From positions 14,314-38,313 of the forward strand of contig JAQVCW010000009.1 in assembly GCA_028689585.1 (NCBI GenBank): a DNA stretch of 24,000 bases, read 5' to 3'. The notes beneath the pieces were generated by a model that made no database searches, was not told the DNA's origin, and worked only from the letters and a program-made list of their open reading frames with translations. The position numbers were made by a program, and so were the translations under genes. Source of the DNA: Lachnospiraceae bacterium (GTDB taxonomy: Bacteria > Bacillota > Clostridia > Lachnospirales > Lachnospiraceae). Within the stretch, counting starts at the first letter, position 1. Each line of letters opens with the position of its first letter. Of the stretch, positions 3,959 through 19,114 are shown one piece after another.

Positions 3959-3972
3959 GAGGAGGGAAGAAC

Positions 3973-5661
3973 ATGGGTATTATGAAAATAGACGGTAGAA
4001 AAGTGGAATTTACCGATGAAAAAAATGTCCTCTCCGTAATCCGAAATGCCGGAATTAATATTCCGACGCTGTGCTATCACTCTGAGGTATCCACTTTTGG
4101 AGCCTGCAGATTATGTACGGTGGAAGATGACAAAGGAAGAACATTTGCATCCTGTTCCGAGGAACCGAGGGACGGAATGGTGATCTACACGAATTCAGGA
4201 AAGGTAAAGAAATACCGGAAGCTGATCGTAGAACTTTTGCTGGCAGCGCACTGCAGAGACTGTACCACCTGTGTACGAAGCGGGGAATGTACTTTGCAGG
4301 AGCTGGCCCGCAGACTTGGGGTTACCGATGTAAGATTTAAAAACACCAGAGAAGAACGTCCTATCGATGACAGCTCTCCTTCCATCATAAGAGATCCAAA
4401 CAAATGCATCCTGTGCGGTGACTGCGTCCGGGCCTGTGAAGAATTGCAGGGTATCGGAGCGCTGGGCTTTACCTTCCGCGGTACGGATGCGGTGGTCATG
4501 CCTGCATTTAACAAAAGGATTGCAGATACTTTCTGTGTGAACTGCGGTCAGTGCCGTGTGTTCTGTCCTACCGGCGCCATCAGTATCCGGAGCAATATCG
4601 ATGAGGTATGGGATGCTCTGGCAGACCCGGATGTTCGGGTAGTGGCTCAGGTGGCTCCTGCCGTGCGTGTGGCAGTGGGAGAAGCGTTCGGAGTAGAAAA
4701 GGGCCGGAGTGTTATGGGCAAGATCGTCAACGGCCTGCACCGGATGGGCTTTGATGAAGTATACGATACCACATTTGCAGCGGATATGACGGTTATGGAA
4801 GAGTCTGCGGAATTTCTGGAGCGGATTGAAAAGGGCGGCCCGCTGCCGCTGCTGACCTCCTGCTGTCCGGCCTGGGTAAAATACGTGACCGATCAGCGCA
4901 AAGAATTTATTCCAAATGTGTCCACCTGCCGTTCCCCGCAGGGAATGATGTCAGCCGCGGTGAAGGAATACTACCGTGACCCGCAGAAGGCAGCAGGTAA
5001 GAAGACGATTATGGTTTCCATTATGCCATGTACCGCAAAGAAGATGGAGGCGAAGCGTTCAAACAGCTTTACCAAAGGGGAACAGGATACGGATATTGTC
5101 ATTACGACCACAGAACTGATTCGCATGATCAAGAATTTCGGTCTGGATTTCTCGGCACTGATGCCGGAGTCCAGTGATATTCCGTTTGGCTTTGGCTCCG
5201 GCGGCGGTGTTTTATTCGGAGTGACCGGCGGTGTGACGGAGGCAGTGCTTCGGCGTCTGATTCCGGAACACGACAAGACAGCGCTGGATGAAATCGCTGA
5301 GAGCGGTGTCAGAGGTGACGATGCAGTGAAAGAACTGACAATCCCATATAAGGGAATGGATGTAAAAATCTGCGTGGTAAATGGTCTTGCAAATGCTGCC
5401 AGGATCATGGACAAGGTGAAAGCAGGAGAGGCAGAGTATCATCTGATCGAAGTGATGGCCTGCCGCCGTGGCTGCATCATGGGAGGCGGACAGCCTACTC
5501 ATGCGGGCCCAAGAACCAAGGCTGCCAGAGCGCATGGCATCTACAATGCGGATAATGTGGCTATCATCAAGAAACCGGATGAGAATCCGCTGCTGAATTC
5601 ACTGTATGAAACCCTGATGAAAGGGAAAGAGCACGAACTGCTCCATAATGAATTTTATTAA
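3973..5661 (+). CDS. hydA: [FeFe]-hydrogenase catalytic subunit
   Basis: 562 aa with RBS AGGAGGAGGG upstream. All three H-cluster signatures are present: TSCCPAWV, MPCTAKKMEA and EVMACRRGCIMGGGQP. The N-terminal part has a 2Fe-2S motif, a His-ligated cluster (HCRDCTTC...C) and two 4Fe-4S motifs (CILCGDCVRAC, CVNCGQCRVFCP). Confidence 0.95.
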   Translation: MGIMKIDGRKVEFTDEKNVLSVIRNAGINIPTLCYHSEVSTFGACRLCTVEDDKGRTFASCSEEPRDGMVIYTNSGKVKKYRKLIVELLLAAHCRDCTTCVRSGECTLQELARRLGVTDVRFKNTREERPIDDSSPSIIRDPNKCILCGDCVRACEELQGIGALGFTFRGTDAVVMPAFNKRIADTFCVNCGQCRVFCPTGAISIRSNIDEVWDALADPDVRVVAQVAPAVRVAVGEAFGVEKGRSVMGKIVNGLHRMGFDEVYDTTFAADMTVMEESAEFLERIEKGGPLPLLTSCCPAWVKYVTDQRKEFIPNVSTCRSPQGMMSAAVKEYYRDPQKAAGKKTIMVSIMPCTAKKMEAKRSNSFTKGEQDTDIVITTTELIRMIKNFGLDFSALMPESSDIPFGFGSGGGVLFGVTGGVTEAVLRRLIPEHDKTALDEIAESGVRGDDAVKELTIPYKGMDVKICVVNGLANAARIMDKVKAGEAEYHLIEVMACRRGCIMGGGQPTHAGPRTKAARAHGIYNADNVAIIKKPDENPLLNSLYETLMKGKEHELLHNEFY

Positions 5662-5784: not shown

Positions 5785-5829
5785 GAGACTTTTATTGCGT
5801 ATACTATGCAATAAAGGTCTCATTTTTTG
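5785..5829 (+). terminator. intrinsic terminator (possible attenuator upstream of the transporter gene)
   Basis: 14-bp stem GAGACTTTTATTGC (5785-5798) / GCAATAAAGGTCTC (5808-5821) with one T:G pair, a 9-nt loop, then ATTTTTTG. Confidence 0.8.
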
Positions 5830-5915
5830 ATATCAACGGGAAATGTAATGCGCAGCATGACGGGCTTTGCAGCAAGAACGCAGGGGCGTTCTTGAATCTG
5901 ATTCGGAGGAAAAAT

Positions 5916-7172
5916 ATGGATTTAGGAAAGCAGACAATAAAGAACATACGGGGATTGATTGTATTTACAATTTTGATTTTTGTGAGCTTCTGGAATCTGG
6001 ATATTGTCCTGGAGGTACTGGGGTTTATCTGGAGCATTCTCTTTCCGTTCGCAGTAGGAGGAGCCATTGCATTTATCATTAATGTGCCCATGTCCTTTAT
6101 GGAAAAGAGATTATTTCGGCTGACGGAGAAGGAAAATAAAAAAGCAGAAACAAAAGATGCAGAAACAAAAAGGGCGGAAAAGAAGAAAAAAATACTGCAG
6201 AAATCCGCAAGGCCGGTGAGCCTGCTGCTTACCATTGTGCTGGTAATGGGCGTGATTATATTGGTTATCTTTTTTGTAGTGCCTCAGTTGGGACGAACCT
6301 TTGGAACCCTGGGAGATAACATTGCGGCTTTTATTCCTAAAATGCAGGAGTGGATCAGAGAGTTCAGCAATAACAATCAGGAGATTATGCAGTATGTAAA
6401 TCAGTTGGAGTTTAATCCGGACGAGTCACTGCACTGGATGATGTCTTTTCTGGAAAGTGGTGCGGGAAGTGTGATGAACACCACATTTGCTGCCGCAAAG
6501 GGTCTTCTAAGCGGGACAGCCACATTTATAATTGCCTTTGTATTTGGGTGCTATATTCTGCTCCAGAAGGAAAAGATGCATATTCAGGCCCGAAAAGTAC
6601 TGTATGCATTTCTTCCTAAGAGCAGAGCCGAGGCTGTGCTGAAGGTGTGCGCCCTGACTTATAAGACTTTTTCCAACTTTCTGACCGGACAATGCCTGGA
6701 AGCAGTTCTGTTAGGATGCATGTTCCTGTTTGCAATGACAATTTTCAAGATGCCTTATGCATTGCTGATCGGTGTGCTGATTGCGTTCTCCGCATTGATC
6801 CCTATATTCGGAGCATTTCTGGGCTGTGGAGTGGGAACCTTTCTTATCTTCATGGTAAATCCCCGGCAGGCCATCTGGTTTGTTGTACTCTTTCTCATAA
6901 TTCAGCAGATAGAAGGCAATTTTGTTTATCCTCATGTGGTCGGAAGCTCAGTGGGACTGCCCTCGGTCTGGGTGCTGGCAGCGGTCAGCGTTGGCGGAAG
7001 ACTTATGGGAGTAGTGGGAATGCTGATTTTTATTCCCATCGTATCCGTGTGCTATACTCTGTTCTGGAAGACGGTACATTTGAAACTAAAAGAGAAAAAA
7101 ATCAAAGAGGTGACAGCGCAGATGATTGAGGAAGAGGAGGACGGGGAAGAGAAGAAAAGACAATGCGAATGA
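5916..7172 (+). CDS. AI-2E / PerM (UPF0118) family membrane transporter
   Basis: ORF 5892..7172. I prefer ATG 5916, which follows GGAGGA (5905-5910). Multiple hydrophobic segments and the family-typical block IIQQIEGNFVYPHVVGSSVGLP. A Lys/Glu-rich loop (KENKKAETKDAETKRAEKKKK) is inserted after the first TM pair. Confidence 0.85.
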   Translation: MDLGKQTIKNIRGLIVFTILIFVSFWNLDIVLEVLGFIWSILFPFAVGGAIAFIINVPMSFMEKRLFRLTEKENKKAETKDAETKRAEKKKKILQKSARPVSLLLTIVLVMGVIILVIFFVVPQLGRTFGTLGDNIAAFIPKMQEWIREFSNNNQEIMQYVNQLEFNPDESLHWMMSFLESGAGSVMNTTFAAAKGLLSGTATFIIAFVFGCYILLQKEKMHIQARKVLYAFLPKSRAEAVLKVCALTYKTFSNFLTGQCLEAVLLGCMFLFAMTIFKMPYALLIGVLIAFSALIPIFGAFLGCGVGTFLIFMVNPRQAIWFVVLFLIIQQIEGNFVYPHVVGSSVGLPSVWVLAAVSVGGRLMGVVGMLIFIPIVSVCYTLFWKTVHLKLKEKKIKEVTAQMIEEEEDGEEKKRQCE

Positions 7173-7193: not shown

Positions 7194-7218
7194 GGGCTGC
7201 TGTGTCAGCTCTTTTTTT
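7194..7218 (+). terminator. intrinsic terminator after the transporter gene
   Basis: GGGCTG-ctgtgt-CAGCTC stem-loop followed by TTTTTTT. Confidence 0.6.
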
Positions 7219-7298
7219 ACGCACTTTATTTATGAAAGAAAAAAATGTATGTGCATAATAAACAAAAAAAATATAATATTATTGTATTATATTGCAAA

Positions 7299-7326
7299 TT
7301 GACTAATTCCAAATAAATGATATAAT
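7299..7326 (+). promoter_or_regulatory. putative sigma-A promoter of the ROK/ABC cassette
   Basis: TTGACT (7299-7304), 16-nt spacer, extended -10 TGaTATAAT (7318-7326). Confidence 0.5.
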
Positions 7327-7332
7327 ATATAT

Positions 7333-7359
7333 TAATTAATAAAGTTTATTTATTAATTA
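7333..7359. promoter_or_regulatory. perfect 11-bp inverted repeat just downstream of the -10 (candidate operator)
   Basis: TAATTAATAAA (7333-7343), 5-nt spacer, TTTATTAATTA (7349-7359). The AT-rich background lowers its significance. Confidence 0.3.
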
Positions 7360-7420
7360 GAAAGATTACGATGTTGGGTAAGAAAATTATTAAACAAATA
7401 AAAGTCGAAGGTAAAGAAAA

Positions 7421-8491
7421 ATGGAACAGGCAGGACAACCAAAAGTATTAAAAGTACATAACAGAGTATTAATTAAAAGACTGATTAAAGAAAAGGGGGC
7501 AATTACAAAACCGGAAATAGCAAAATTCACAAAATTAAGTCTTCCAACGGTAAACAAGATTATGGATGAACTGGTGGAGGAGGGGTATGCAATCGAGGCT
7601 TCACTGCAGGAGCGATCCAAAGCAGGCAGAAAAGCAAGGACATATATATTGAATGATAAATTTGGCACCTTTTTATCTATCTACTATATGGATGAAAAAT
7701 GGATTGGAAGTATTGTTGATATAGCTGGAAATGTATTATCAGAAATCGAAAGTCAGGCCCTGGCCGGCGGCAAAGAGCTAGAAACTATTTTAAGTATACT
7801 GGATGAACTGGAACAATTGGCAGAGCGTGTTATGGCGATAGGAATAGGAGTGCCGGGTATCGTATTGAAGGATGGAACGATAGATGGAATACCATTGCTG
7901 CCGAGGTTGGAAGGCGTTAGGTTGGCAGAGGTAATTAATCAGAAATATAAACAGCCAGTATATATTGAAAATGATGTAAAACTAATGACGCTTGGGTATT
8001 ATAATCTTCGCCTGAATAGTTTGGATAACATAGTATTTCTCTATATTGGAAGCGGAATTGGTGCCGGAATTTTGATAAATGGACAGCTATATAAAGGAAA
8101 CTGCAGTTTTGCAGGAGAATTTGGATACATGGTTGCAGCAGCCGAAAAAAAGGACGTCAATGACAGCGAAGAGAATGTTGAAAAGAGGTTGATTTCCCTG
8201 AGAAAAAAAATTCAGAAAAAAGATTGTGCAGAACAGTATAAGCTTCAGTTTTGCCGTGAAATTGGCCGGATATTGATTAATTGTTCCGCTGTCATCAATC
8301 CAGAAGCAATTGTTTTATATTGTGATGAGCTGGATGCAGGAAATCTTATGCAGATCGAAACCGAGATAAAACGATATCTGCCGAAAATATGTGTGCCAAA
8401 GCTTTGCAGAACGTCAGATAAAAGAGTTGGAATTAATGGACTCATTGCTCTGTGCCAGGAAGGAATCGCACAAAAGAGTGTTTTGTCATAA
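7421..8491 (+). CDS. ROK-family transcriptional regulator (N-terminal winged HTH plus sugar-kinase-like sensor domain)
   Basis: 356 aa. The N-terminus (NRVLIKRLIKEKGAITKPEIAKFTKLSLPTVNKIMDELVEEGY) is typical of NagC/XylR-type ROK repressors. The ROK core includes IGVPG, ENDVKL and GSGIGAGILINGQLYKG..FAGEFGY. Confidence 0.85.
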   Translation: MEQAGQPKVLKVHNRVLIKRLIKEKGAITKPEIAKFTKLSLPTVNKIMDELVEEGYAIEASLQERSKAGRKARTYILNDKFGTFLSIYYMDEKWIGSIVDIAGNVLSEIESQALAGGKELETILSILDELEQLAERVMAIGIGVPGIVLKDGTIDGIPLLPRLEGVRLAEVINQKYKQPVYIENDVKLMTLGYYNLRLNSLDNIVFLYIGSGIGAGILINGQLYKGNCSFAGEFGYMVAAAEKKDVNDSEENVEKRLISLRKKIQKKDCAEQYKLQFCREIGRILINCSAVINPEAIVLYCDELDAGNLMQIETEIKRYLPKICVPKLCRTSDKRVGINGLIALCQEGIAQKSVLS

Positions 8492-8519
8492 TGAAGGGGG
8501 GCGAATAAAATTGGAAGCC

Positions 8520-9434
8520 ATGAAATTATGGGTTTCTGTGGATGGTGGTGGTACAAAGACAACTATATGCGCCTGTGATGAACATTATAAAAAAGTATTT
8601 GATGAATCCTTTGGATGTTCGAATTATAAGGCAGCAGGTTTGAAAACAGTATCAGAAATATTGGTAAATGCTTTCGAACACATGATGAATACATTAAAAT
8701 GCACGAAAGAAAATATTGCCGGAGTTGTAATGGCGATTGCTGGATGCGATACGCAAAAAGATGTATTAGTTTATAAAAATATCATGAAGTCCACGAAAAT
8801 TGAAGAAGAAAAATTATTTGTATGCAATGACACAGAAGCTATTTTTCGATCTCTTTCCGATAAGGATGGAATATGTGTAGTGGCGGGAACCGGCTCTATT
8901 GTGTGCGCTTATGATAAAAACGGATTGAGAACACGAGTGGGTGGCTGGGGATCCCCTTTATCAGATGAGGGATCCGGATATTGGATAGGGGCAGAATTAC
9001 TGAAAAAAGTTATACGCTGGTACGATGGAGTAAACGAAGAAAGCCGCCCCGTATATAAAGAAATTGAAAAACAATATTCGAGATCGGGTACAGAATTGGC
9101 CTGGGTATTGACATCTTTATCAGTAAAAGAGGTGGCGGCTGTTTCTTCTTTCGTATTTCAATATGCTAAACAGGGAGATGAACTTTGCAAAGAAATTATT
9201 CAGAGGGCCACAGATTCGTTGATTCAACAGATCTCAGTCATATGCAAAAAGATGAGTTATAAAAAATCATTTTCAATTTTAATGGTTGGTGGTCTGTTTA
9301 ATGATGGTGATTTTTTACAGAGAGTGAAAATGGGAATTACAGAGCAGTTTCAGTTACAGAAAATTGAATTCTTACGTCCGGAAAATTCACCAGCAGAGGA
9401 TGGATTGAATTTTGCGAAGAAATTGTTTTTATAA
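8520..9434 (+). CDS. BadF/BadG/BcrA/BcrD-type ATPase, N-acetylglucosamine-kinase-like sugar kinase
   Basis: ORF 8391..9434, whose 5' part overlaps the ROK gene. Plausible starts are ATG 8520 (MKLWVSVDGGGTKT) or TTG 8511, 9 nt after GAAGGGGGG. Motifs: DGGGTKT, VAGTGS, GGWGSPLSDEGSGYWIG. Confidence 0.8.
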   Translation: MKLWVSVDGGGTKTTICACDEHYKKVFDESFGCSNYKAAGLKTVSEILVNAFEHMMNTLKCTKENIAGVVMAIAGCDTQKDVLVYKNIMKSTKIEEEKLFVCNDTEAIFRSLSDKDGICVVAGTGSIVCAYDKNGLRTRVGGWGSPLSDEGSGYWIGAELLKKVIRWYDGVNEESRPVYKEIEKQYSRSGTELAWVLTSLSVKEVAAVSSFVFQYAKQGDELCKEIIQRATDSLIQQISVICKKMSYKKSFSILMVGGLFNDGDFLQRVKMGITEQFQLQKIEFLRPENSPAEDGLNFAKKLFL

Positions 9435-9488
9435 TCAGGTGCGTAAGTGGTAAACACTTAAAATAATTTATTCCAAGGAGGAACAGAC

Positions 9489-10613
9489 ATGAAAAAAACT
9501 TTAAATGCAGCAGTAGCAATGATGATGGCAATTACAGCGATTGGTATGCCAATGAGTGTATCAGCAGAAGAAAACAGTGAATTTTTAACAATGATTCCAA
9601 ATTATGATAATGCAGTTGGAACGTATGCACAGGGACCAAACGGGGAAGAGGCGGTTGCGGCTGATGATGTTAATCTTACTGAGGAGCAGTATGCAGTAGT
9701 TAAGGATATGCATCTTTCCCTTGCGATGTTATGGGCTGGTGCAGGAGAGTGGTACAATGGCATGACAGACGGAGCAAAGAGTGAATGTGAAAAAATGGGA
9801 ATAGAGATTGCTACAACTGCAGATGCTGAATTTGATCCGGCTCAGCAGGCAACTCAGATTGAGACAGCCCTTTCACTTAGTCCAGACATTATTTTGACAC
9901 TTCCGGTGGACCCTGCCAGTGGGACAGCAGCATATCAGCCAGCAGTAGATCAGGGTGTCAAAATTGTATTTGCTGATAATTCTGTCAATGGATATATTGG
10001 CGGAGAACAGTATGTATCAGTTTGTACGGGTGATCAATATGGTATGGGAAGAACTTGCGCTCAGTTAATTTCGGATGCTATTGGTGGTTCAGGTAAAATA
10101 GGCATTATTTATTATGAAGCTGACTACACGGTAACAAATAATCGTGATAATCAGTTTGTACGTTCTATTTTGGAGGATTATCCTGATATTGAAATTGCAA
10201 GTATGATGGGATTTGCTGAGGAAACTGCTACCGGTGAAGTGGCATCTGCAATGCTGACACAAAATCCGGATCTGGATGCTGTTTATGTTTCGTGGGATGT
10301 TGCGGCAGAACCTGTCGTGGCAGAAATACGTTCTTCCGGATATGATACGAAACTGGTGACGATAGACCTGGGCGGTAATAATGATCTTGAAATGGCAAAT
10401 GGCGGTATTGTATATGGGAAATCTGCAGATATGCCTTACCAGATTGGTGCAACTATGGTGAAAACAGCAGCACTGAGTTTGTTAGGAGAAGAGGCACCTA
10501 CCTACATTGTAAGTGACAGTATTTGCATGACAAAGGATAATATTGAAGAAAGCTGGATTTCAGCTATGAATTGCCAACCAAGTGACGATGTATTGAAAGC
10601 TTTAGGAAAATAG
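9489..10613 (+). CDS. sugar ABC transporter substrate-binding protein (periplasmic-binding-protein type I, RbsB-like)
   Basis: 374 aa with RBS AAGGAGGA upstream. Signal peptide MKKTLNAAVAMMMAITAIGMPMSVSA|EEN. Alternating alpha/beta pattern typical of CUT2-type binding proteins. Sits directly upstream of its permease. Confidence 0.85.
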   Translation: MKKTLNAAVAMMMAITAIGMPMSVSAEENSEFLTMIPNYDNAVGTYAQGPNGEEAVAADDVNLTEEQYAVVKDMHLSLAMLWAGAGEWYNGMTDGAKSECEKMGIEIATTADAEFDPAQQATQIETALSLSPDIILTLPVDPASGTAAYQPAVDQGVKIVFADNSVNGYIGGEQYVSVCTGDQYGMGRTCAQLISDAIGGSGKIGIIYYEADYTVTNNRDNQFVRSILEDYPDIEIASMMGFAEETATGEVASAMLTQNPDLDAVYVSWDVAAEPVVAEIRSSGYDTKLVTIDLGGNNDLEMANGGIVYGKSADMPYQIGATMVKTAALSLLGEEAPTYIVSDSICMTKDNIEESWISAMNCQPSDDVLKALGK

Positions 10614-10663
10614 TAGCCTGTTTATTAGCAGGTCAGAGACTGCTGCAGGCTGGAAGGAGTCAG

Positions 10664-11614
10664 ATGATGCAAAGACAAAGCTTTAAGGATATAAATCTTA
10701 GTAAGTTTATAGTCTATATAAGTTTTTTTATAGTTTTAATTGGATTTTCAATCTTGCTACCGGGGAAATTTTTGACAGTAAATAATATATTGAATATTTT
10801 GCGTCAAACTGCAATGATTTCAGTGGCAGCAGTCGGCATGACATTTGCTATTACTGCAGGTCAGATTGACTTGTCTACAGGAGGCGTAACTGCTATTACA
10901 GCTTTGGTAACAGCGTTAATGCTGCAGAGATTTCCGACGGTCATTGCTGTACTTATAGGTGTGGGAGTAGGTTTTATCTGTGGGGCATTAAACGGGATAT
11001 TGCTGACTAAATGCAGAATTCCTGCTTTTATTGTTACTTTGGGAACCAGCAGCGTATATGTGGGATTTGCAAGGTCATTAACAAATTTAGAGGCTGTTAC
11101 AATTACAAATGAAACTTTTAATCACTATTTTGGATCTGGCAATATTGGATTTATTCCCACACTGTTTCTTTGGACGGTAGTGATTACGGTTATAGGCCAG
11201 TATGTATATAAGAAAACACCTTTTGGACGTGCGGTGCTGGCAGTTGGCGGAAGTGAATCAGCAGCTCGTTATTCTGGTATAAATACAGATAAAATTAAAT
11301 TTTGGGCAATGACTATTTGTGGTATTACGGCTGCATTTTCAGGTATTTTATATTCGGCTCGAATGCATGGCGCAAGATATACCTATGGTGAAAATGACAG
11401 TATGAATATTATTGCAGCAGTAGTAATAGGCGGGACAAGTTTTAGCGGAGGTAAAGGAACAGTATTTGGCACTTTGCTGGGTTCTCTGGTAATAGGCATG
11501 CTGAACAATGGATTGCTTCTGCTGGGATTGAGCGTGAATGCGCAAATGATTGCCAGAGGTATCGTGATTGTATTGGCAGTATCACTTAGTCTGAGAGAAA
11601 AACTGAGTAATTAA
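10664..11614 (+). CDS. sugar ABC transporter permease (RbsC/AraH-like, BPD_transp_2 type)
   Basis: 316 aa, highly hydrophobic, RBS GGAAGGAG upstream. Family-typical blocks: TAGQIDLSTGG, IPAFIVTLGT and GGTSFSGGKGTVFGTLLG. Confidence 0.9.
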   Translation: MMQRQSFKDINLSKFIVYISFFIVLIGFSILLPGKFLTVNNILNILRQTAMISVAAVGMTFAITAGQIDLSTGGVTAITALVTALMLQRFPTVIAVLIGVGVGFICGALNGILLTKCRIPAFIVTLGTSSVYVGFARSLTNLEAVTITNETFNHYFGSGNIGFIPTLFLWTVVITVIGQYVYKKTPFGRAVLAVGGSESAARYSGINTDKIKFWAMTICGITAAFSGILYSARMHGARYTYGENDSMNIIAAVVIGGTSFSGGKGTVFGTLLGSLVIGMLNNGLLLLGLSVNAQMIARGIVIVLAVSLSLREKLSN

Positions 11615-11627
11615 GGGGGGAAGATGG

Positions 11628-12818
11628 ATGTTTTTAAAGAAGATAATGGAACGGAACGAAAGACTGATTGATGCCTCTGTTCAACTTCATCAGAAGTTGA
11701 AAATACCAGCAAATTCTTATGTATTGGATGTAGATACAATTGCGCAGAATGTGAAAATGATGGCAGACATTTGTCACGAAAATGGGATGAAGTTGTATCC
11801 CATGACGAAGCAGATTGGACGAAACCCAGTGGTTATAAAAGCAATTAAATCAGTCGGGGCGGATGGATGTGTATGTGTAGACATGGCGGATGCAAGGAGA
11901 GTTCATGAAGCGGGGATGCCTATTGGTCATTTGGGGCATCTGGTACAGGTACCGAAAGCAGAGACCATGGCAGCGGCAGCGATGGAGCCGGAATACTGGA
12001 CAGTTTATAGCCTGGAGAAAGCAAAGGCTATATCCGATGCAGTACCGGAAGGCAGAATTCAAAAAATTATGCTTCGTATTTATACGGATGGGGATACCTA
12101 CTATACCGGACATGAGGGCGGATTTGAAGCAAAGGATATCGTAGAAGCCGCAAAAAAAATAAATCAGATGCCAGGACTGGAGTTTGCCGGATTAACTACA
12201 TTTCCGACACAACTGTTTGATGATAAAAGTATAACAATAAAGCATACACACAATTATCAGACGATTCTGGAAGCAAAAGAGAGATTAGAAAAAGCCGGAT
12301 TTTCTTCTGTTGAAATTAATGCGCCAGGAACTACTTCATCCCATCTTTTTTCGGAAATGGCGGCCAGCGGTGTGACACAGGTTGAGCCTGGGCATGGAAT
12401 GACAGGTACAACACCAATTCATGCATTTTGTGATATGATTGAAAAACCAGCGATGGTTTATGTGTCAGAGGTGTGTCATTTTTATAAGGGAAGAGGTTAT
12501 TGCTATGGTGGGGGAATGTATATTGATCCTGTTTTTCCGCCTTATGCGGTGCGGGCCTGCGTAGGAAGTACACCGGAAGAAGCTAAGAAAAATCTGATTG
12601 TCTGTGATATTCCTAATCCGGCGGCAATCGATTATTATGGTATCTTTGAACCAAATGATAAAATACGCCAGGGAGATACCGTTGTATTTGGTTTTAGAGC
12701 TCAGGCATTTGTAACACGTGCATTTATTGTGCCGGTTGTAGGTATCTCAACAGGGAATCCAGTCGCAGCAGGAGTGTTTGACAGTGATGGTAAGATAACG
12801 GGGTGGCCGAATTGCTGA
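11628..12818 (+). CDS. YhfX-like fold-type III (alanine-racemase-fold) PLP-dependent enzyme, substrate unknown
   Basis: 396 aa with a GGGGGG RBS 7 nt upstream. Blocks recalled from E. coli YhfX: YPMTKQIGRNP (candidate PLP lysine), GHLGHLVQVP, GRIQKIMLRIY, MPGLEFAGLTTFP, NAPGTTS, EPGHGMTGTTP, YCYGGGMY and VFGFRAQAFVTR. Confidence 0.75.
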   Translation: MFLKKIMERNERLIDASVQLHQKLKIPANSYVLDVDTIAQNVKMMADICHENGMKLYPMTKQIGRNPVVIKAIKSVGADGCVCVDMADARRVHEAGMPIGHLGHLVQVPKAETMAAAAMEPEYWTVYSLEKAKAISDAVPEGRIQKIMLRIYTDGDTYYTGHEGGFEAKDIVEAAKKINQMPGLEFAGLTTFPTQLFDDKSITIKHTHNYQTILEAKERLEKAGFSSVEINAPGTTSSHLFSEMAASGVTQVEPGHGMTGTTPIHAFCDMIEKPAMVYVSEVCHFYKGRGYCYGGGMYIDPVFPPYAVRACVGSTPEEAKKNLIVCDIPNPAAIDYYGIFEPNDKIRQGDTVVFGFRAQAFVTRAFIVPVVGISTGNPVAAGVFDSDGKITGWPNC

Positions 12819-14323
12819 AAGATGAATACGCGTTAGAGTTAAAAGATATTTATAAATCTTTTTATCAAAATCAAGTATTAAAGGGTGTATCCCTGAATGT
12901 AGAAAAAGGTATGATTATGGGGTTGCTCGGCGGTAATGGAGCAGGTAAATCAACATTGATGAAAATTGTAAATGGTATCTATGCAAAAGATTCCGGAGCA
13001 ATCTTTATTGGCGGAAAAGAAATAGAACTTCATAATGCACAAGATGCGAAAAGGCAGGGAATTGCAATGGTGTATCAGGAATTATCTCTTGTGCCTACAT
13101 TAACTGTAGTACAGAATTTATTTCTGAATGCAGAGCCTTGCAATGGTTTAAGCATTGATGAAAAAATGTGTTTGAAGCAGGCCAAAGAAGCATTTGAAGA
13201 TTTTGGGATAAACGACATTGATCCTAATGCGGTTGCAGGGGATCTTCCAATAGGAAAAAAACAATTGATAGAGATTATTAAAGCAATGTTAAAAAATCCC
13301 CAGGTATTGATATTAGATGAACCAACTGCATCTTTAACACAATATGAAATTGGACTGCTGTTTGAATTTATCCGCAAATTAAAAGAAAGAGGAATTGCCA
13401 TTATCCTTATTTCTCACCATATGAAAGAAATTGTGGAAATCTGCGATCGTGCAGTGATTTTATTTAATGGAACAGTTGCTTTAAATGCAGAGGTAAAAAG
13501 TCTGACGATACCGGATATGGTAGAGGCAATGGTGGGCCGAGAGGTGCAGGAAGACTATGTAAAGCGGGAGAAAAAGGCAGATTATAATGCGGAACCATTG
13601 CTTTGCGTAAAAGATTTGGAGAACAGTGATGGAAAGCTAAATGGTGCATGCTTTACTATCTATCCGGGCGAAGTAGTTGGAATTGCAGGACTGATGGGAA
13701 GTGGCCGTACAGAATTGATAAAATGCATCTATGGATTGATGAAACCTAAGAAAGGATCTGTGACGCTGCGTGGCAAAAAAATTACAGGGCAGAAGCCTTG
13801 GGTATCTGTAGACACGGGAGTATTTATGATTCCGGAAGATAGAAGAAAATCCGGTATTATAGATATCCATTCAGTAAAAATGAATCTGTTTCTTTCTGCT
13901 TGGAAACATTTTACCAAAGGCGGGTGGATTCAGGATAAGAAAGCAGATGAAGAAGCCAAAAAACTGATTGAAAAACTGGATATTAAAACCACAGGGATAG
14001 GGCAGGAAGTGAAAAATTTATCTGGAGGAAATCAGCAGAAAGTGGTATTTGGTAAGAGTGTATTTTTGCATCCGGATATACTTATGCTGGATGATCCAAC
14101 AGTAGGTGTGGATGTGGAAGCAAAGGATGGAATTTGCAGAATAATATCAGCGATTGCAGATACTGGAAGTGGAGTTCTGTTGGTTTCATCTGAATTTGAT
14201 CATTTGGCCCGTGTGTGTGATCGTGTTTTGATTATGAAACAGGGACGAATGGTTGGAGAATTGAAGCGTGGAAAAGATAAATTATCAGAGAGTTCGTTGT
14301 TGGTAGCGGTGCAGGGAGCTTAA
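12803..14323 (+). CDS. sugar ABC transporter ATP-binding protein with two fused ATPase domains (RbsA-like)
   Basis: 506 aa. Start is GTG 12803 (or in-frame TTG 12812), overlapping the end of the PLP-enzyme gene. Domain 1 has Walker A GGNGAGKST, a degenerate signature-motif position and Walker B LILDEPT. Domain 2 has GLMGSGRTEL, LSGGNQQK and LMLDDPT. Confidence 0.9.
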   Translation: MAELLKDEYALELKDIYKSFYQNQVLKGVSLNVEKGMIMGLLGGNGAGKSTLMKIVNGIYAKDSGAIFIGGKEIELHNAQDAKRQGIAMVYQELSLVPTLTVVQNLFLNAEPCNGLSIDEKMCLKQAKEAFEDFGINDIDPNAVAGDLPIGKKQLIEIIKAMLKNPQVLILDEPTASLTQYEIGLLFEFIRKLKERGIAIILISHHMKEIVEICDRAVILFNGTVALNAEVKSLTIPDMVEAMVGREVQEDYVKREKKADYNAEPLLCVKDLENSDGKLNGACFTIYPGEVVGIAGLMGSGRTELIKCIYGLMKPKKGSVTLRGKKITGQKPWVSVDTGVFMIPEDRRKSGIIDIHSVKMNLFLSAWKHFTKGGWIQDKKADEEAKKLIEKLDIKTTGIGQEVKNLSGGNQQKVVFGKSVFLHPDILMLDDPTVGVDVEAKDGICRIISAIADTGSGVLLVSSEFDHLARVCDRVLIMKQGRMVGELKRGKDKLSESSLLVAVQGA

Positions 14324-14385
14324 TCCGGGATTATGTTTTTCGATGAACTATGGTTTTGAGAATAAAGATGAGCACTCTTAAATAC

Positions 14386-14430
14386 AAAAGCGGGACGCTG
14401 TGTATTGTCTGACACAGCGCCCGCTTTTTG
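14386..14430. terminator. bidirectional intrinsic terminator between convergent genes
   Basis: AAAA-GCGGGACGCTGTGT (14390-14403), 8-nt loop, ACACAGCGCCCGC (14412-14424), then TTTTT. The A-tract on one side and T-tract on the other let it serve both strands. Confidence 0.8.
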
Positions 14431-14445
14431 TATGGCAGTATTTAT

Positions 14446-15627
14446 TTAGTGATGGAACAGCCGGATTCCCGTAAATGCCATTGCTATATTGTATTTATTA
14501 CAGGTTTCGATAACCTGGTCATCACGGATGGACCCGCCTGGCTGTGCAATGTATTCTACACCGCTCTTGTGAGCACGCTCGATGTTATCACCGAAGGGGA
14601 AGAATGCATCAGAGCCAAGAGATACACCGGACATGGTGGAAAGCCATGCTTTCTTTTCTTCTTTTGTGAATTCAGCCGGTTTTGTTTTGAAAACGTGTTC
14701 CCAGTTACCGTCACTGAGGAGATCTTCCACGCTGTTTTCACCGATATAGACATCAATCGCATTGTCACGGTCAGCACGGCGGATATCGTCAGCGAAAGGA
14801 AGGTTCAGAACCTGAGGTGCCTGACGCAGATACCAGTTGTCCGCTTTGCTTCCCGCCAGTCTGGTACAGTGAACTCTGGACTGCTGTCCGGCACCGATGC
14901 CGATGGCCTGTCCGTCTTTTACATAGCAGACAGAATTGGACTGGGTATACTTTAAGGTGATCAGGGAGATCATCAAATCTTCTTTGCTGCTATCCGGGAT
15001 ATCGGTATTGGCGGTCACTACTTTTGACAGCAGATCCTTGTTGATATCCAGTTCGTTCCGGCCCTGTTCAAAGGTGATGCCATAGACCTGCTTGTGCTCC
15101 AGGGCAGCGGGGCGGTAGGAAGGATCGATCTGAATGACATTGTAGTTTCCATTCTTTTTCTGATGAAGTATTTCCAGGGCCTCCGGTTCATATCCGGGTG
15201 CAATGACACCGTCGGAAACTTCGCGTTTGATAAGTCTGGCAGTGGCGGCATCGCAGGTGTCAGACAGGGAGATAAAATCACCAAAGGAAGACATACGGTC
15301 AGCGCCTCTTGCACGGGCATAGGCACAGGCCAGAGGAGATAAATCGCCTTCATCCTCCACCCAGTAGATTTTTTTCAGAATGTCACTTAAAGGTCTGCCT
15401 ACAGCAGCACCGGCAGGAGACACGTGTTTAAATGAAGCGGCAGCGGGAAGTCCGGTTGCCTTTTTCAGTTCACTGACCAACTGCCAGCCGTTAAACGCAT
15501 CCAGAAAGTTGATGTATCCGGGTTTTCCGGACACAACCCTGATGGGAAGCTCTGAGCCGTCGGCCATAAAGATTCTGGAAGGCTTCTGATTAGGGTTGCA
15601 TCCATATTTCAATTCCAGTTCATTCAT
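14446..15627 (-). CDS. purH: AICAR formyltransferase (PurH transformylase domain only; no MGS-like IMP cyclohydrolase domain)
   Basis: 393 aa. Begins LKYGCNPNQKPSRIF... and continues with SFKHVSPAGAAVG and GSIRDDQVIETCNKYNIAMAFTGIRLFHH, which match the C-terminal AICARFT half of bifunctional PurH. Confidence 0.9.
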   Translation of the reverse strand: MNELELKYGCNPNQKPSRIFMADGSELPIRVVSGKPGYINFLDAFNGWQLVSELKKATGLPAAASFKHVSPAGAAVGRPLSDILKKIYWVEDEGDLSPLACAYARARGADRMSSFGDFISLSDTCDAATARLIKREVSDGVIAPGYEPEALEILHQKKNGNYNVIQIDPSYRPAALEHKQVYGITFEQGRNELDINKDLLSKVVTANTDIPDSSKEDLMISLITLKYTQSNSVCYVKDGQAIGIGAGQQSRVHCTRLAGSKADNWYLRQAPQVLNLPFADDIRRADRDNAIDVYIGENSVEDLLSDGNWEHVFKTKPAEFTKEEKKAWLSTMSGVSLGSDAFFPFGDNIERAHKSGVEYIAQPGGSIRDDQVIETCNKYNIAMAFTGIRLFHH

Positions 15628-15652
15628 AATTTAAATCCTCCTTTTGGGCTTG

Positions 15653-16366
15653 TTATACGTTCTTGTTAACGATTCTGGTTTCATAGGTGCCGGACGCGTA
15701 ATCCAGAAAACGGACGAAGAGGGAGACTTTATTTTCTTCGTCCAGGCTGGTCCAGACTTTATCCGTAAAGGTATCTATGTCACCTGTGATCTCTACCAGT
15801 GTGGGTTCGCCTTCGTAGCTTGGAAGAGGATTGCCGTCACCCATATAGGTGTGGATAAAATGTCCTTCTCCTGCTTTTGGATTGCTGTAGGCATAGGTAA
15901 AGCGGAGGCATTCGTCCGGATCGCCGTTATTGCTTTTCAGGATAGACAGGGCATAATGAAACCCTTCTGTTTCACTGCGGACAATGCCGGAGATACGAGG
16001 TGTATAATTCGGGGCATCCGGCTCGAAGGTGCGGGTGCGCAATGCCTGCTCAAAGGTAAGCTGTGTATCCATTTTTTCGTAAATAGTGTCGGTCTGGTCA
16101 CCGTTTGTTACGATGGTCTTGTTGCCAAGGACTCTCACCGGAGCGTAGATAATGAGAGAGGGATCCTCCAGTTTGCCCGGATCAAATGCCTGTGTGCGGA
16201 TACCTTCTCCATCTTCTGTAAATACACGGTTTCTGGAATTGGCGCTTCTGCCCATGATGAAATAGGCCATGACGGCCTTGCTTCCGTCTTCACTTCTTCC
16301 AAGCACAATTCCTCTGCCGGGGTATGCGTTGTTTTTGAGATCTTCATACAGGGATACTTTTTTCAT
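15653..16366 (-). CDS. purO: archaeal-type IMP cyclohydrolase (PurO family)
   Basis: 237 aa with RBS AAAGGAGAA upstream. The pattern YPGRGIVLGRSEDGSKAVMAYFIMGRSANSRNR...VTNGDQTDTI resembles PurO (Y.GR....GR..G....AY....RS...R ... NG..TDTI). Adjacent to and co-directional with the AICARFT-only purH. Confidence 0.82.
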   Translation of the reverse strand: MKKVSLYEDLKNNAYPGRGIVLGRSEDGSKAVMAYFIMGRSANSRNRVFTEDGEGIRTQAFDPGKLEDPSLIIYAPVRVLGNKTIVTNGDQTDTIYEKMDTQLTFEQALRTRTFEPDAPNYTPRISGIVRSETEGFHYALSILKSNNGDPDECLRFTYAYSNPKAGEGHFIHTYMGDGNPLPSYEGEPTLVEITGDIDTFTDKVWTSLDEENKVSLFVRFLDYASGTYETRIVNKNV

Positions 16367-16473
16367 ACGGATTCTCCTTTTCTTTGAAAAACGAAAATGT
16401 TCAGACCGAAGCTATGGAGAAAAAACAATAACAGTTCTCATAGCTGCTGCGGCCAGGTGTCTGCTGATCGCAC

Positions 16474-16578
16474 AAAAAACGCCTGAACACAGTTCATAAG
16501 GAATAAACGGTGCCCAGGCGGTCGGCTCATATACTAACGTGCTCCCTGTGGTTCATCCACTTCCGCCGGTCACACGTA
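16474..16578 (-). promoter_or_regulatory. ZTP (pfl-motif) riboswitch with terminator expression platform
   Basis: The reverse strand reads GUGACCGGCGGAAGUGGAUGAACCACAGGGAGC ... GAGCCGACCGCCUGGGCACCG. This matches the two conserved ZTP subdomains, including the CCGCCUGGGCA pseudoknot element. The CGCCUGGGCAC segment can instead pair with the downstream GUGUUCAGGCG, which is followed by UUUUUU (16479..16474). It sits in front of purO-purH, a classic ZTP regulon. Confidence 0.85.
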
Positions 16579-16585
16579 TATTTTT

Positions 16586-16614
16586 ATAATAGATTAAAAT
16601 ATTGGTTTTGGCAA
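16586..16614 (-). promoter_or_regulatory. putative sigma-A promoter driving the ZTP riboswitch and purO-purH
   Basis: On the reverse strand: TTGCCA (16614..16609), 17-nt spacer, TATTAT (16591..16586). Confidence 0.5.
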
Positions 16615-16685
16615 GAGGAAACTTTAATTAAAATGAAAAAGGCGAAAAAATAAATAAATTCCTGTGGCAGCTTTGGCAGTCTTAA

Positions 16686-16714
16686 TTGATTTTGCATCAG
16701 CCCTAGTATATAAT
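16686..16714 (+). promoter_or_regulatory. putative sigma-A promoter of the DUF1846 gene
   Basis: TTGATT (16686-16691), 17-nt spacer, TATAAT (16709-16714). Confidence 0.5.
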
Positions 16715-16750
16715 AGCTGTAAAAAGCGTCCGCATCCCGGAGGCAGAGGT

Positions 16751-16795
16751 AAAAGAAAAACAGAAAAGAAAAACAGAAAAGAAAAACGAAAGAAT
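16751..16795. repeat. purine-only 13-nt tandem repeat in the DUF1846 leader
   Basis: AAAAGAAAAA CAGAAAAGAAAAA CAGAAAAGAAAAA CGAAAGAA: about 3.5 head-to-tail copies ending at the RBS GAGGA. Confidence 0.85.
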
Positions 16796-16813
16796 TGAGG
16801 AATGAAAGAAAAG

Positions 16814-18292: not shown

Positions 18293-18332
18293 TTTTTCAT
18301 GTTTGTCAGCAGTATCACAAATTTTATCGTGA

Positions 18333-18633
18333 GTTATGATTCACAGCAGACGCGGCATGCCTGCCAGGGCATCTGACCGTCTGGCACAGGAAAAGACCGC
18401 GCAGCACTGTTTCGGAGTCCAAGAGCATCTATGCTCTCTGAAATGCAGCTCAGACAGGAATAAGAGAGCCTGACTCGCCACAGGCTCAGACAAAGGCTCT
18501 CTTATTCCATCGCCGCATTCCAGAGAGCAAGATGCTTAGAACTCCTGCAAATGTGCGGCTGCGGTCTTTCACGTGCCAGACGGTCAGATGCTCTGGCAGG
18601 CATGTCGCTGTTAATTGGCCGTGAATGGTAATC
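18333..18633. repeat. ~300-bp imperfect palindrome (arms ~130-140 nt), MITE-like, flanked by the 8-bp direct repeat TATCGTGA
   Basis: Arms pair around a centre at ~18480. For example, 18356-18387 is the reverse complement of 18573-18604 with 1 mismatch in 32, and GGAATAAGAGAGCC pairs with GGCTCTCTTATTCC at the apex. The termini GTTATGATTCAC and GTGAATGGTAATC are inverted. TATCGTGA occurs at 18325-18332 and 18634-18641. Confidence 0.7.
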
Positions 18634-18662
18634 TATCGTGAACTTTTCAGGAGAAAAAGTGG

Positions 18663-18690
18663 TTGACAATAAAAAAAAGTATGCTATAAT
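18663..18690 (+). promoter_or_regulatory. putative sigma-A promoter of the metal-resistance operon
   Basis: TTGACA (18663-18668), 16-nt spacer, TATAAT (18685-18690). Confidence 0.6.
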
Positions 18691-18703
18691 TCAATTATAA
18701 AAC

Positions 18704-18723
18704 ATATGAACAATTATTCATAT
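18704..18723. promoter_or_regulatory. ArsR/SmtB-type operator (12-2-12-like inverted repeat)
   Basis: ATATGAACAATTATTCATAT, with arms ATATGAA / TTCATAT. It contains the TGAACA..TATTCA core described for SmtB/CzrA/CadC-type operators and lies 14 nt downstream of the -10. Confidence 0.6.
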
Positions 18724-18747
18724 AAAATAAGAGAGGATGAGACAAAT

Positions 18748-18966: not shown

Positions 18967-19007
18967 GAACATTAAAAATTAGGTAAACGAAACACAGACA
19001 GTTGAAA

Positions 19008-19083: not shown

Positions 19084-19114
19084 AAAAAAATAAGCTGAAA
19101 AAGCAGGTGACAAA

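Follow-up and report, generated by a model that had tools for sequence, protein, structure and literature searches.

Within the 24,000-nt stretch of Lachnospiraceae DNA analysed here (the window), six co-directional ORFs (7421-14323) lie between two terminators and raise the question of which compound they serve. Their order is ROK regulator, kinase, substrate-binding protein, permease, YhfX-like enzyme and ATPase. The families named in the initial annotation were borne out by ORF calls and by profile matches, which gave, in gene order, HTH_24 plus ROK, BcrAD_BadFG, Peripla_BP_4, BPD_transp_2, Ala_racemase_N plus YhfX-like_C, and two copies of ABC_tran (Table 1). No pathway could at first be assigned to this gene set, and our searches likewise found no characterised one. 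In our judgement the cassette is a variant, not yet characterised, of the operons for amino-sugar breakdown; the fuller reading developed below – that it is horizontally mobile, regulates itself and catabolises a cationic amino sugar (a 2-amino-2-deoxy-hexose or close derivative) – we hold to have about an even chance of being right.

Table 1. Features of the cassette and its borders (positions in the window).
Feature	Position	Strand	Remarks
Terminator-like hairpin (intrinsic terminator of AI-2E/PerM-type gene)	7194..7218	+	stem 7194-7211, then T-run
Sigma-70-type promoter TTGACT-16-TATAAT	7299..7326	+	TG before -10 box; 11/12 positions match
27-bp palindromic operator ATTAATTAATAAAGTTTATTTATTAAT (predicted; presumed ROK repressor site)	7331..7357	.	
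ROK-family transcriptional regulator, 356 aa	7421..8491	+	winged HTH + ROK domain
BadF/BcrAD/NAGK-type sugar kinase, 307 aa	8511..9434	+	ASKHA motif DGGGTKT
Type I (Peripla_BP_4) substrate-binding protein, 374 aa	9489..10613	+	signal peptide without lipobox Cys
RbsC-like permease (BPD_transp_2), 316 aa	10664..11614	+	
YhfX-family fold-type III PLP enzyme, 396 aa	11628..12818	+	PLP lysine K61
Fused double ABC ATPase (RbsA/XylG-like), 503-506 aa	12803..14323	+	
Bidirectional terminator, common to cassette and convergent purH	14393..14422	.	hairpin on both strands

The origin of the block is indicated firstly by its composition. In 500-nt windows G+C drops from ~0.47-0.55 to 0.30-0.44 between 7001 and 14500, and in 300-nt windows the mean is 0.391 inside the cassette versus 0.468 outside (Mann-Whitney p = 6e-7). 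GC3 is 0.296-0.353 in the six cassette genes against 0.481-0.545 in all ten flanking genes, and the tetranucleotide L1 distance between cassette and flanks (0.30-0.34) exceeds that between the flanks themselves (0.17). The lower G+C noted earlier between the two terminators is thus confirmed. G+C falls 3′ of the left terminator, the bidirectional terminator forms the right border, and a step in GC3 of ~0.2 coincides exactly with both. The neighbours were rightly described at the outset as perM-like and purH: the former encodes an AI-2E/PerM-type transporter and the latter is an AICARFT-only purH.

Further evidence came from the distribution of the cassette in other genomes. The same six genes occur in the same order across Clostridia in unrelated neighbourhoods: the order is invariant wherever a locus is long enough to show it and its YhfX protein reaches 57% identity or more (in Lachnospiraceae, Oscillospiraceae, Hydrogenoanaerobacterium and Thermoanaerobacterales), the flanking genes change from locus to locus, and kinase-containing cassettes form a single clade in a neighbour-joining tree. 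Since even the closest relatives (76-80% identity) carry an identical block amid unrelated genes, the block moves as a unit. Composition and neighbourhoods together support the view, in line with the lateral insertion first proposed, that the operon was laterally acquired and is horizontally mobile. An alternative is that this is an old resident operon whose low G+C reflects weak expression or selection. It would fit with the failure to find an integrase, tRNA or flanking direct repeats at the cassette borders, with the non-recovery of an empty perM-purH site (no sufficiently close genome being among those compared), and with the cassette being AT-richer than its flanks in several other hosts too, such that its composition could be intrinsic. 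Against it stand the placement of the GC3 step exactly at the two terminators and the recurrence of the identical block in unrelated surroundings. This alternative, or its companion – that the PLP gene encodes an unrelated amino-acid racemase lodged in a neutral-sugar operon – is in our view very unlikely. The companion proposal is countered by gene order: of 71 loci, from more than one phylum, 51 have the YhfX gene flanked by those for permease and ATPase, with overlapping frames, which excludes a chance neighbour. The overlap with the ATPase gene is nearly constant at 16 nt (7-16 nt in the present cassette). Upstream, the kinase was called from a TTG at 8511, 8 nt past a GGGGGG run at 8497-8502. 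The longest ORF begins at a GTG at 8391, which gives a 100-nt overlap with the ROK gene; this start is unlikely to be the one used.

That the cassette may regulate itself is suggested by the DNA in front of the ROK gene, where the initial annotation had placed a strong promoter and an 11-bp palindrome. Both exist: the promoter is the best-scoring site of the region and perfect 11-nt arms run from 7333-7343 and 7349-7359. The register that is conserved, however, is a 13+1+13 palindrome, which begins 5 nt after the -10 box. The cassette's copy differs at one position from the 27-bp consensus ATTAATTAATAAAGTTTATTAATTAAT, which three lineages (9 loci) carry unaltered. The other upstream regions of the cassette clade that were compared contain a match with at most five mismatches, save for one lineage (L109/L110) that has only a weaker half-site pair instead. 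In related cassettes the operator sits just after the -10 box, with the promoter at the same position relative to it; across 1.27 Mb of DNA searched, matches are almost confined to this location, and 100 shuffles indicate that none is expected by chance.

The most telling clues to the substrate are genes that relatives append to the module. In three non-sister lineages (L005, L010 and L021) nagB stands directly 3′ of the ATPase gene, its products exceeding the TIGR00502 nagB cut-off (270.6 and 291.8 bits versus 236.9). A SIS protein, non-homologous to NagB, is encoded after the ATPase gene in Rhizobium pMK-3 and in metagenomic locus L091, and in metagenomic locus L061 a SIS gene directly follows the YhfX gene; the best model for the SIS protein is NagB-II (274.9 and 251.9 bits, below the equivalog cut-off of 430). 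The module is therefore associated with two non-homologous types of glucosamine-6-phosphate deaminase. Neither nagB nor nagA is present in the cassette at this locus, a point against the amino-sugar reading; the earlier statement that the module contains nothing else is accordingly true of this copy and not of its relatives, which carry a deaminase. The binding protein points in the same direction. Its pocket, read from a remote, sequence-only alignment to E. coli RbsB, retains the equivalents of D89, R141, F164, D215 and the stacking aromatics; all 26 family members examined show N in place of R90, D in place of Q235, and Glu or Asp at P14. This suggests two more acidic residues and one arginine fewer than in ribose-binding protein. 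The deaminase genes and the acid-enriched pocket together strengthen the original idea of an amino sugar and argue for one whose catabolism ends at glucosamine-6-phosphate.

As for the kinase, its nearest solved structures, at E ~1e-25, are the hexokinase of S. tokodaii (2E2N) and MurK of C. acetobutylicum (8ZO3), and its sole NCBIfam match, NagK_SO3507, scores 89.6 bits, far below the equivalog cut-off of 370. Elsewhere its role is taken by BadF, PfkB or ROK kinases, depending on lineage, and in Alphaproteobacteria an M20 deacylase occupies its slot. Amidases, PTE-family hydrolases and glycosidases are found with YhfX in yet other lineages; five metagenomic loci have, alongside CUT2-linked YhfX genes, a PTE/Php-type gene in common with the yhfZYXW-php-yhfUTS cluster of E. 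coli. The M20 protein in the kinase slot and the variety of hydrolases imply that substrates may differ between lineages.

Central to any reading is the PLP enzyme, which, as initially proposed, is a YhfX-like protein of fold-type III: it matches E. coli YhfX (4KBX) over its full length (E = 5e-79), with 38% identity in structural alignment and a TM of 0.91. Both proteins comprise the same two domains, and neither has a known function; our literature search found no work assigning one to YhfX. The PLP lysine, invariant in the family, is at the position it holds in alanine racemase and the fold-III enzymes of D-beta-hydroxy amino acids, which share the TIM-barrel plus beta-domain fold (TM 0.6-0.7); identity to these is nevertheless only 12-17%, and the C-terminal domain constitutes a separate Pfam family. 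Arg129, His159 and Arg209 of alanine racemase (E. coli numbering) align with Glu, Phe and Glu (the last being E253), and its catalytic Tyr with a non-conserved F/Y position, which suggests, from a profile alignment of low statistical support (E = 0.09), a non-racemase environment. Among characterised enzymes, those closest in structure have beta-hydroxy amines of D configuration as substrates, and C2 of glucosamine is so configured. The reaction could be C2 epimerisation or elimination.

Elimination raises the possibility that the enzyme is a lyase. Its substrate, fed to it by transporter and kinase, would be a 2-amino sugar or 2-amino sugar acid with an oxygen substituent at C3, and the reaction a PLP-dependent beta-elimination or a retro-aldol cleavage. 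Of the candidates, D-glucosaminate or its 6-phosphate would yield a 2-keto-3-deoxy acid; non-acetylated muramic acid or its 6-phosphate would lose D-lactate. By profile and fold the enzyme is indeed nearest to D-threonine aldolases, D-3-hydroxyaspartate aldolase, D-threo-3-hydroxyaspartate dehydratase and D-serine dehydratase. Moreover, E253, within VEPG, aligns with the partner of the pyridine nitrogen, as in fold-III decarboxylases (Glu274 in ODC) and unlike racemases (Arg219 in Alr); MurK is as close to the kinase as any solved kinase; and the proteins found with YhfX elsewhere include amide- or lactam-type hydrolases (M20, amidase, PTE and hydantoinase B). Yet the C-terminal His/Asp or His/Cys metal site of D-threonine aldolase and D-serine dehydratase cannot be aligned, the profile matches ending near residue 240, and in the loci examined neither a KDPG-type aldolase nor MurQ is linked to the cassette. 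The appended NagB or NagB-II-like protein would, in addition, be redundant if the lyase deaminated its substrate, unless elimination were followed by rehydration to glucosamine. We regard a lyase as possible, if rather doubtful.

A different proposal is that the module serves a glycated amino acid or glyco-amino acid, namely an Amadori or Heyns product or else a glycosyl-serine/threonine. The kinase would then act on the sugar end, and the PLP enzyme on the free alpha-amino-acid end. E. coli yhfX adjoins the fructoselysine operon frlABCDR, with which the cassette shares the logic of transporter, sugar kinase and amine removal; PfkB kinases, SIS proteins and M20 peptidase-like genes occur with YhfX in soil loci and Alphaproteobacteria, and the fold-III relatives use amino acids. 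The cassette, however, has another class of transporter and lacks an FrlB-type deglycase, a PfkB kinase and an FrlC epimerase, and the best-scoring models for the SIS proteins are NagB-II and GlmS rather than deglycases of the FrlB type. NagB works on a primary amine, CUT2 systems take ligands of monosaccharide size, and most RbsB-type sugar contacts are retained; the alpha-carboxylate Arg of alanine racemase aligns, with low support, with His-Glu in the YhfX-like family. This proposal seems to us distinctly improbable.

Returning to the cationic amino sugar, we infer which sugar it is, in what order kinase and PLP enzyme act, and the type of reaction as follows. Without the sugar, the ROK repressor would occupy the palindrome downstream of the -10 box and block transcription; the sugar or its phosphate would allow expression. 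The monosaccharide would be imported by the CUT2 system and phosphorylated by the BadF/NAGK-type kinase, probably at O6. The YhfX-family enzyme would form an aldimine with the primary amine, and carbanion chemistry at the amine-bearing carbon would convert the compound or its phosphate to glucosamine(-6-phosphate), C2 inversion from a mannosamine-type to a glucosamine-type sugar being the most parsimonious reaction. NagB, whose gene some relatives have within the operon and this genome presumably has at another place, would deaminate the product to fructose-6-phosphate. Two points count against this scheme. Glucosamine itself could be dealt with by a kinase and NagB alone, which makes the PLP step depend on a further, hypothetical substrate; and to our knowledge free mannosamine is not an abundant natural nutrient.

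Several described systems resemble the cassette in part. With nag-type catabolism (the BadF-type NagK and NagB-II of Shewanella, the NagB of many bacteria) it shares a BadF-family hexosamine-type kinase, a sugar-responsive repressor and, in relatives, the deaminase; it differs in lacking a NagA deacetylase, in using a CUT2 ABC importer in place of PTS or NagP, and in having an obligatory PLP enzyme that features in no described nag pathway. The ribose and allose importers RbsABC and AlsABC have the same type I binding protein, single permease and fused double ATPase, but no enzyme gene inserted between permease and ATPase genes, and all equivalog scores of the cassette importer are far below cut-offs. 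The neighbours of E. coli yhfX are, as had been remarked, quite different: there, and in B. thuringiensis and Cetobacterium, YhfX occurs with a PRD protein, the membrane proteins YhfT/YhfU, Php, and class V aminotransferase-like and phosphopentomutase-like proteins, and, unlike the cassette, without an ABC importer, BadF kinase or ROK regulator. To a family without known function even in E. coli, the operon thus gives a testable context.

The six-gene cassette behaves as a conserved, mobile unit. In sliding windows, G+C falls from about 0.47–0.55 outside to 0.30–0.44 between roughly 7000 and 14500; the mean of 300-nt windows is 0.391 inside the cassette and 0.468 outside (Mann-Whitney p = 6e-7), and GC3 drops from 0.481–0.545 in ten flanking genes to 0.296–0.353 in the six cassette genes. 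The tetranucleotide L1 distance between cassette and flanks (0.30–0.34) is about double that between flank and flank (0.17). The compositional break has the sharp borders of a genomic island, with terminator-like hairpins at both (see table), and the low-G+C block between terminators described in the initial annotation is thus borne out by each of these measures.

A further mark of a genomic island is the occurrence of the same block in differing contexts of related organisms. The YhfX-like protein of the window has 3090 database relatives at E <= 0.001. Neighbourhoods were obtained by exact-protein look-up, by a scan of genome contigs and by a scan of metagenomes with a 27-sequence alignment; the contig scan, run with a single protein, gave three loci, and the alignment-based metagenome scan yielded far more. 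With the ORFs of the fetched loci labelled by comparison with the window's six proteins, the order ROK, BadF kinase, binding protein, permease, YhfX, ATPase was found in every sufficiently long locus with a YhfX at least 57% identical, in Lachnospiraceae, Oscillospiraceae, Hydrogenoanaerobacterium, Thermoanaerobacterales and metagenomes from digesters and rumen. These loci fall into one clade of the neighbour-joining tree (the cassette clade), and their flanking genes differ in each lineage. Flanks are unrelated among the window and the relatives' loci L001, L003, L108, L109, L005, L008, L010, L013 and L015. Even where identity is high the surroundings change: the locus P0002 (80%) lies between spoIVB/AhpC/MerR and MFS/MarR, P0009 (76%) between UDP-glucose dehydrogenase plus epimerase and CpsB, and L001 (78%) among genes different from either. 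In several hosts the cassette is AT-richer than its flanks which, together with the GC3 step, supports lateral acquisition. The early suggestion of a lateral insertion therefore gains both from composition and from flanks that differ in the closest lineages.

Neither a tRNA target nor flanking direct repeats were found at the cassette, and a domain scan for integrases and transposases, which covered ten flanking ORFs but not the short ones at 21700-24000, gave none. The nearest homologues of the adjoining PerM protein, sought as a guide to an empty perM-purH site, are 64–66% identical and, in the two neighbourhoods fetched, non-syntenic with the window. That the cassette genes are mere chance neighbours that never transferred is very improbable: this reading is contradicted by the conservation of the permease-YhfX-ATPase arrangement and by the variety of genomic contexts.

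All six co-directional genes and the domains initially predicted for them were recovered by ORF calling and domain search. The operon is of the repressor-controlled sugar-utilisation type, with an uncharacterised but obligatory PLP step.

Table. Features of the window, with coordinates, strand and domains or remarks
Feature	Coordinates	Strand	Domains or remarks
HydABC-type hydrogenase genes	1539-5661	+	2Fe-2S thioredoxin-like protein, Nuo51-like protein, Fe-only hydrogenase large subunit
AI-2E/PerM transporter			
Terminator-like hairpin	7194-7211		followed by T-run
Promoter match	7299-7326		
Predicted operator	7331-7357		register 13+1+13
ROK repressor gene		+	HTH_24 (residues 20-56), ROK (residues 121-241)
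BadF/NAGK-type kinase gene	8511 (start)	+	BcrAD_BadFG; TTG start most likely
Binding protein gene	9489-9580 (N-terminus)	+	Peripla_BP_4
Permease gene		+	BPD_transp_2
YhfX-like PLP enzyme gene	11628-12818	+	Ala_racemase_N, YhfX-like_C
ATPase gene	12803-14323	+	two ABC_tran
Terminator-like hairpin	14393-14422	both	
PurH	14446-15627	-	AICARFT domain only; convergent purine operon
Archaeal-type IMP cyclohydrolase	15653-16366	-	convergent purine operon
ZMP/ZTP riboswitch RF01750	16505-16583	-	upstream of convergent purine operon
DUF1846 protein	16802-18292	+	full-length
P-type ATPase			
ArsR			
Region of about 1.8 kb	21710-23500		45% G+C

Three of the genes make up a CUT2 importer: one encodes a binding protein of type I, one the only permease, of the BPD_transp_2 family, and one an ATPase in which two ABC domains are fused. 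The best ATPase score, 448 bits, comes from XylG-type models; the permease matches RbsC at 215.7 bits, and no equivalog cut-off is reached. The binding protein of the window carries a signal peptide, MKKTLNAAVAMMMAITAIGMPMSVSA/EE, without a lipobox cysteine, whereas its orthologues in the relatives' loci L003, L023 and L029 have the LxxC lipobox; it may be secreted or held by an uncleaved signal, which would be unusual for a Gram-positive ABC binding protein. For the kinase, the TTG start, 8 nt past a GGGGGG run (8497-8502), is favoured over an overlapping GTG at 8391. The protein matches PF01869 at 113 bits and has the ASKHA phosphate-1 motif DxGGT in the form DGGGTKT. Its neighbours in a structure-database search of the PDB are 2E2N, a hexokinase of broad hexose/hexosamine range, and the MurK structure 8ZO3; its sole NCBIfam match is the BadF-type NagK_SO3507 (89.6 bits against a cut-off of 370).

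The YhfX gene is built into the transporter genes. Of the 71 loci in which both sides are visible, 51 have it flanked by the permease gene and the ATPase gene, and the length that it shares with the start of the latter hardly departs from 16 nt. This placement and overlap point to translational coupling of the YhfX gene with the transporter subunit genes, and the enzyme itself may physically associate with the importer.

Control of the cassette can be predicted in some detail. The first protein has the architecture of ROK-family repressors of the NagC/Mlc/XylR type, and its best NCBIfam models are Mlc and NagC, both far under their equivalog cut-offs. The best promoter match of the region (TTGACT-16-TATAAT, 11 of 12 positions, with TG before the -10 box) sits 95 nt before the start codon of the ROK gene, and a 27-bp palindrome, ATTAATTAATAAAGTTTATTTATTAAT, begins 5 nt downstream of the -10 box. 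A perfect 11-bp palindrome before the regulator had been recorded at the outset; the palindrome stands, and its 11+5+11 register gives way to the conserved one of 13+1+13. The window sequence is one base off the consensus ATTAATTAATAAAGTTTATTAATTAAT, which has A at position 21 and is exact in three lineages (9 loci). A 4-nt central insertion in the window operator was considered and rejected, as the mismatch-tolerant search resolved the difference to a single substitution. The other upstream regions available from the cassette clade have at most 5 mismatches, and the lineage of loci L109/L110 has only a weaker pair of half-sites. In nearly all cassette-clade loci the predicted operator lies upstream of the ROK gene, always downstream of the -10 box. 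Operator-like matches in 1.27 Mb of fetched DNA occur almost exclusively at this promoter position, and none was found in shuffled window sequence. The conserved palindrome is a phylogenetic footprint of a putative operator which, as is usual for ROK repressors, would overlap the repressor's own promoter. We infer that the ROK protein likely represses its own operon through the palindrome, and that a sugar or sugar phosphate would lift the repression. In one relative, L019 (73% YhfX identity), the ROK gene at 5825-6866 is split into two ORFs of 217 and 150 aa; this may be a frameshifted repressor, in which case the cassette there would be constitutive.

A central issue is the nature of the PLP enzyme. 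The 396-aa protein belongs to the YhfX family, scoring over the cut-offs of both PF01168 (83.4 bits) and PF21279 (84.7 bits). It matches the E. coli YhfX structure 4KBX with E = 5e-79 over residues 1-390, and its AF2 model (pLDDT 94) superimposes on that structure with a TM of 0.91; the full-length match upholds the original designation as a YhfX-like fold-III PLP enzyme. K61 (MTKQ), where the first barrel strand ends, does not vary among 27 homologues. Its alignment with the PLP-binding lysine of D-threonine aldolase and with K34 of E. coli Alr identifies it as the Schiff-base lysine. The nearest characterised proteins outside the family, at 12–17% identity, are D-threonine aldolases, D-3-hydroxyaspartate aldolase and dehydratase, and D-serine dehydratase, together with alanine racemases and D-Orn/D-Lys decarboxylase; profile matches to the D-threonine aldolases end before the C-terminal domain.

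In public records the protein is named alanine racemase, an identity that we reject: no alanine-racemase NCBIfam model matched it, and the Arg/His/Tyr network and the pyridine-nitrogen arginine appear not to be kept. In a profile alignment to E. coli Alr/DadX, whose E of 0.09 makes the residue mapping tentative even though the motifs are consistent, Alr R129, H159 and R209 correspond to E163, F192 and E253. In the same tentative alignment the catalytic Y255 falls on a position that varies between F and Y and adjoins Tyr291, which is invariant, and Cys292, which is nearly so. Quinonoid chemistry is favoured where a carboxylate contacts the pyridine nitrogen, ornithine decarboxylase being an example, and the public name is for this reason probably wrong. 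Loss of the carboxylate-binding arginine would also fit a substrate that has no alpha-carboxylate.

As to that substrate, four independent lines of evidence all point to a sugar that bears an amine and is predicted to end at glucosamine-6-phosphate. In three non-sister lineages (loci L005-7/L022, L010/11/25 and L021) the next gene after that of the ATPase is nagB, and the NagB proteins of the two loci tested, L005 and L010, both exceed the TIGR00502 cut-off. In distant relatives a SIS protein non-homologous to NagB has NagB-II as its best model (251.9 and 274.9 bits, under the 430-bit equivalog cut-off and about twice the GlmS score); its gene follows the ATPase gene in locus L091 and on the Rhizobium plasmid pMK-3, and comes right after the YhfX gene in locus L061. 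The kinase role is filled by non-homologous BadF, PfkB or ROK kinases, depending on lineage. Finally, 26 binding proteins of the cassette family were aligned to E. coli RbsB, with the ligand contacts of the 2DRI structure as reference. D89, R141, F164, D215 and the aromatic platform are kept, but in all 26 R90 is replaced by N, Q235 by D, and the P14 position is Glu or Asp, so that the putative pocket differs from the ribose pocket by two extra negative charges and one positive charge fewer.

The window departs from a nag-type operon in that neither NagB nor NagB-II was found among its ORF calls and domain matches, and a NagA/amidohydrolase gene is absent from its cassette and from the called genes of the inspected cassette-clade loci. 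A frl-type fructosamine operon is rejected, the cassette having no equivalents of FrlB and FrlD (SIS deglycase and PfkB kinase); the SIS proteins of the distant loci match NagB-II and GlmS rather than FrlB.

A kinase and NagB would suffice for glucosamine itself; the ever-present PLP enzyme would therefore have to convert another primary-amine sugar into the glucosamine series, on the main reading by inverting C2 of a hexosamine or its 6-phosphate. We regard the case for such an amino-sugar module as evenly balanced, and hold any specific reaction with less confidence. The main rival, rather unlikely if favoured by the fold neighbours of the enzyme, is a beta-elimination or retro-aldol cleavage; its substrate would carry a 3-O substituent or be an acid form, muramic acid and glucosaminate being examples. 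The appended deaminases tell against it, unless rehydration follows elimination. An eliminase might, for example, remove D-lactate from non-acetylated muramic acid of spore-cortex or de-N-acetylated peptidoglycan. The handling of a glycated amino acid is more doubtful still, being weakened both by the NagB and NagB-II associations and by the CUT2 pocket. Returning to the amino-sugar module, we put forward tentatively, as a proposal that may well prove wrong, that YhfX proteins are a new PLP class acting on amino-sugar C2, either as hexosamine(-6-phosphate) 2-epimerases or as 3-O eliminases. The route into glucosamine-6-phosphate would then be one not yet described, with the enzyme gene translationally coupled to the subunit genes of a dedicated CUT2 importer, and E. 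coli YhfX would thereby be assigned.

Beyond the cassette clade YhfX keeps varied company. M20 deacylases of ArgE/DapE type fill the kinase slot in Ruegeria, Aminobacter and Rhizobium; other contexts include amidase-signature, PTE/Php-type and hydantoinase B proteins, glycosidases of GH2/3/4/39 and, in one locus, GatZ/KbaZ with a class II aldolase. Such contexts are compatible with related compounds that, in these other lineages, are N-acylated or held in glycosidic linkage. The alphaproteobacterial module (L100, the Ruegeria sp. TM1040 megaplasmid; L101, Aminobacter; L105, Rhizobium pMK-3) comprises ROK, M20 deacylase, one or two binding proteins, permease, YhfX and a half-size ATPase (~250 aa), has no kinase, and gains the NagB-II-like SIS gene in Rhizobium; its carriers are cultured and tractable. 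In the relatives' loci L010/L011 a second CUT2-type operon (13930-21188) lies directly downstream of the nagB-containing cassette, with two M20 peptidase genes between its ATPase and permease genes, and repeats the theme of an enzyme gene embedded in a sugar ABC operon. In one digester lineage (L030-L036) the ATPase gene is followed by a conserved protein of 341-343 aa (L030 12808-13839, for example), which carries a signal peptide and matches neither Pfam nor NCBIfam models.

The flanks of the window hold features of their own. The genes at its left have the domains of an electron-bifurcating HydABC-type [FeFe]-hydrogenase. On the right the riboswitch scores 64.1 bits against a gathering score of 39, and the pairing of an archaeal-type IMP cyclohydrolase with an AICARFT-only PurH places the two activities of PurH on separate genes. 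The DUF1846 protein (601 bits for the N-terminal and 207 bits for the C-terminal domain) adjoins these riboswitch-controlled purine genes. Further on, the ORFs in the region of about 1.8 kb do not exceed 75 aa on either strand, and searches for Rfam families and tRNAs gave nothing there; the region may represent a gene in decay or non-coding DNA of an uncharacterised kind.

YhfX is a widespread family with a solved structure. The E. coli protein, encoded in the yhfZYXW-php-yhfUTS cluster beside frlABCDR, is annotated merely as a putative PLP-binding protein, and a full-text literature search returned no assigned reaction and no functional study of YhfX, its cluster or the present gene set. The cassette and its relatives put this family in a compact and repeatedly transferred context, one in which a sugar-type importer is joined by a hexosamine-type kinase and, in several lineages, by a glucosamine-6-phosphate deaminase. 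That context narrows the question of YhfX to a short list of substrates, and a long-standing 'conserved unknown' is now open to a short and concrete set of experiments; the conserved palindrome, for its part, offers genome annotation a new ROK regulon motif. Were amino sugars to prove its substrates, the enzyme would bring a PLP-dependent step into their catabolism, and Clostridia of gut, rumen and digesters would be seen to occupy a nutrient niche of this kind. Should YhfX proteins prove to be a new PLP class, the orphan YhfX of E. coli, and with it its cluster, would gain a function.
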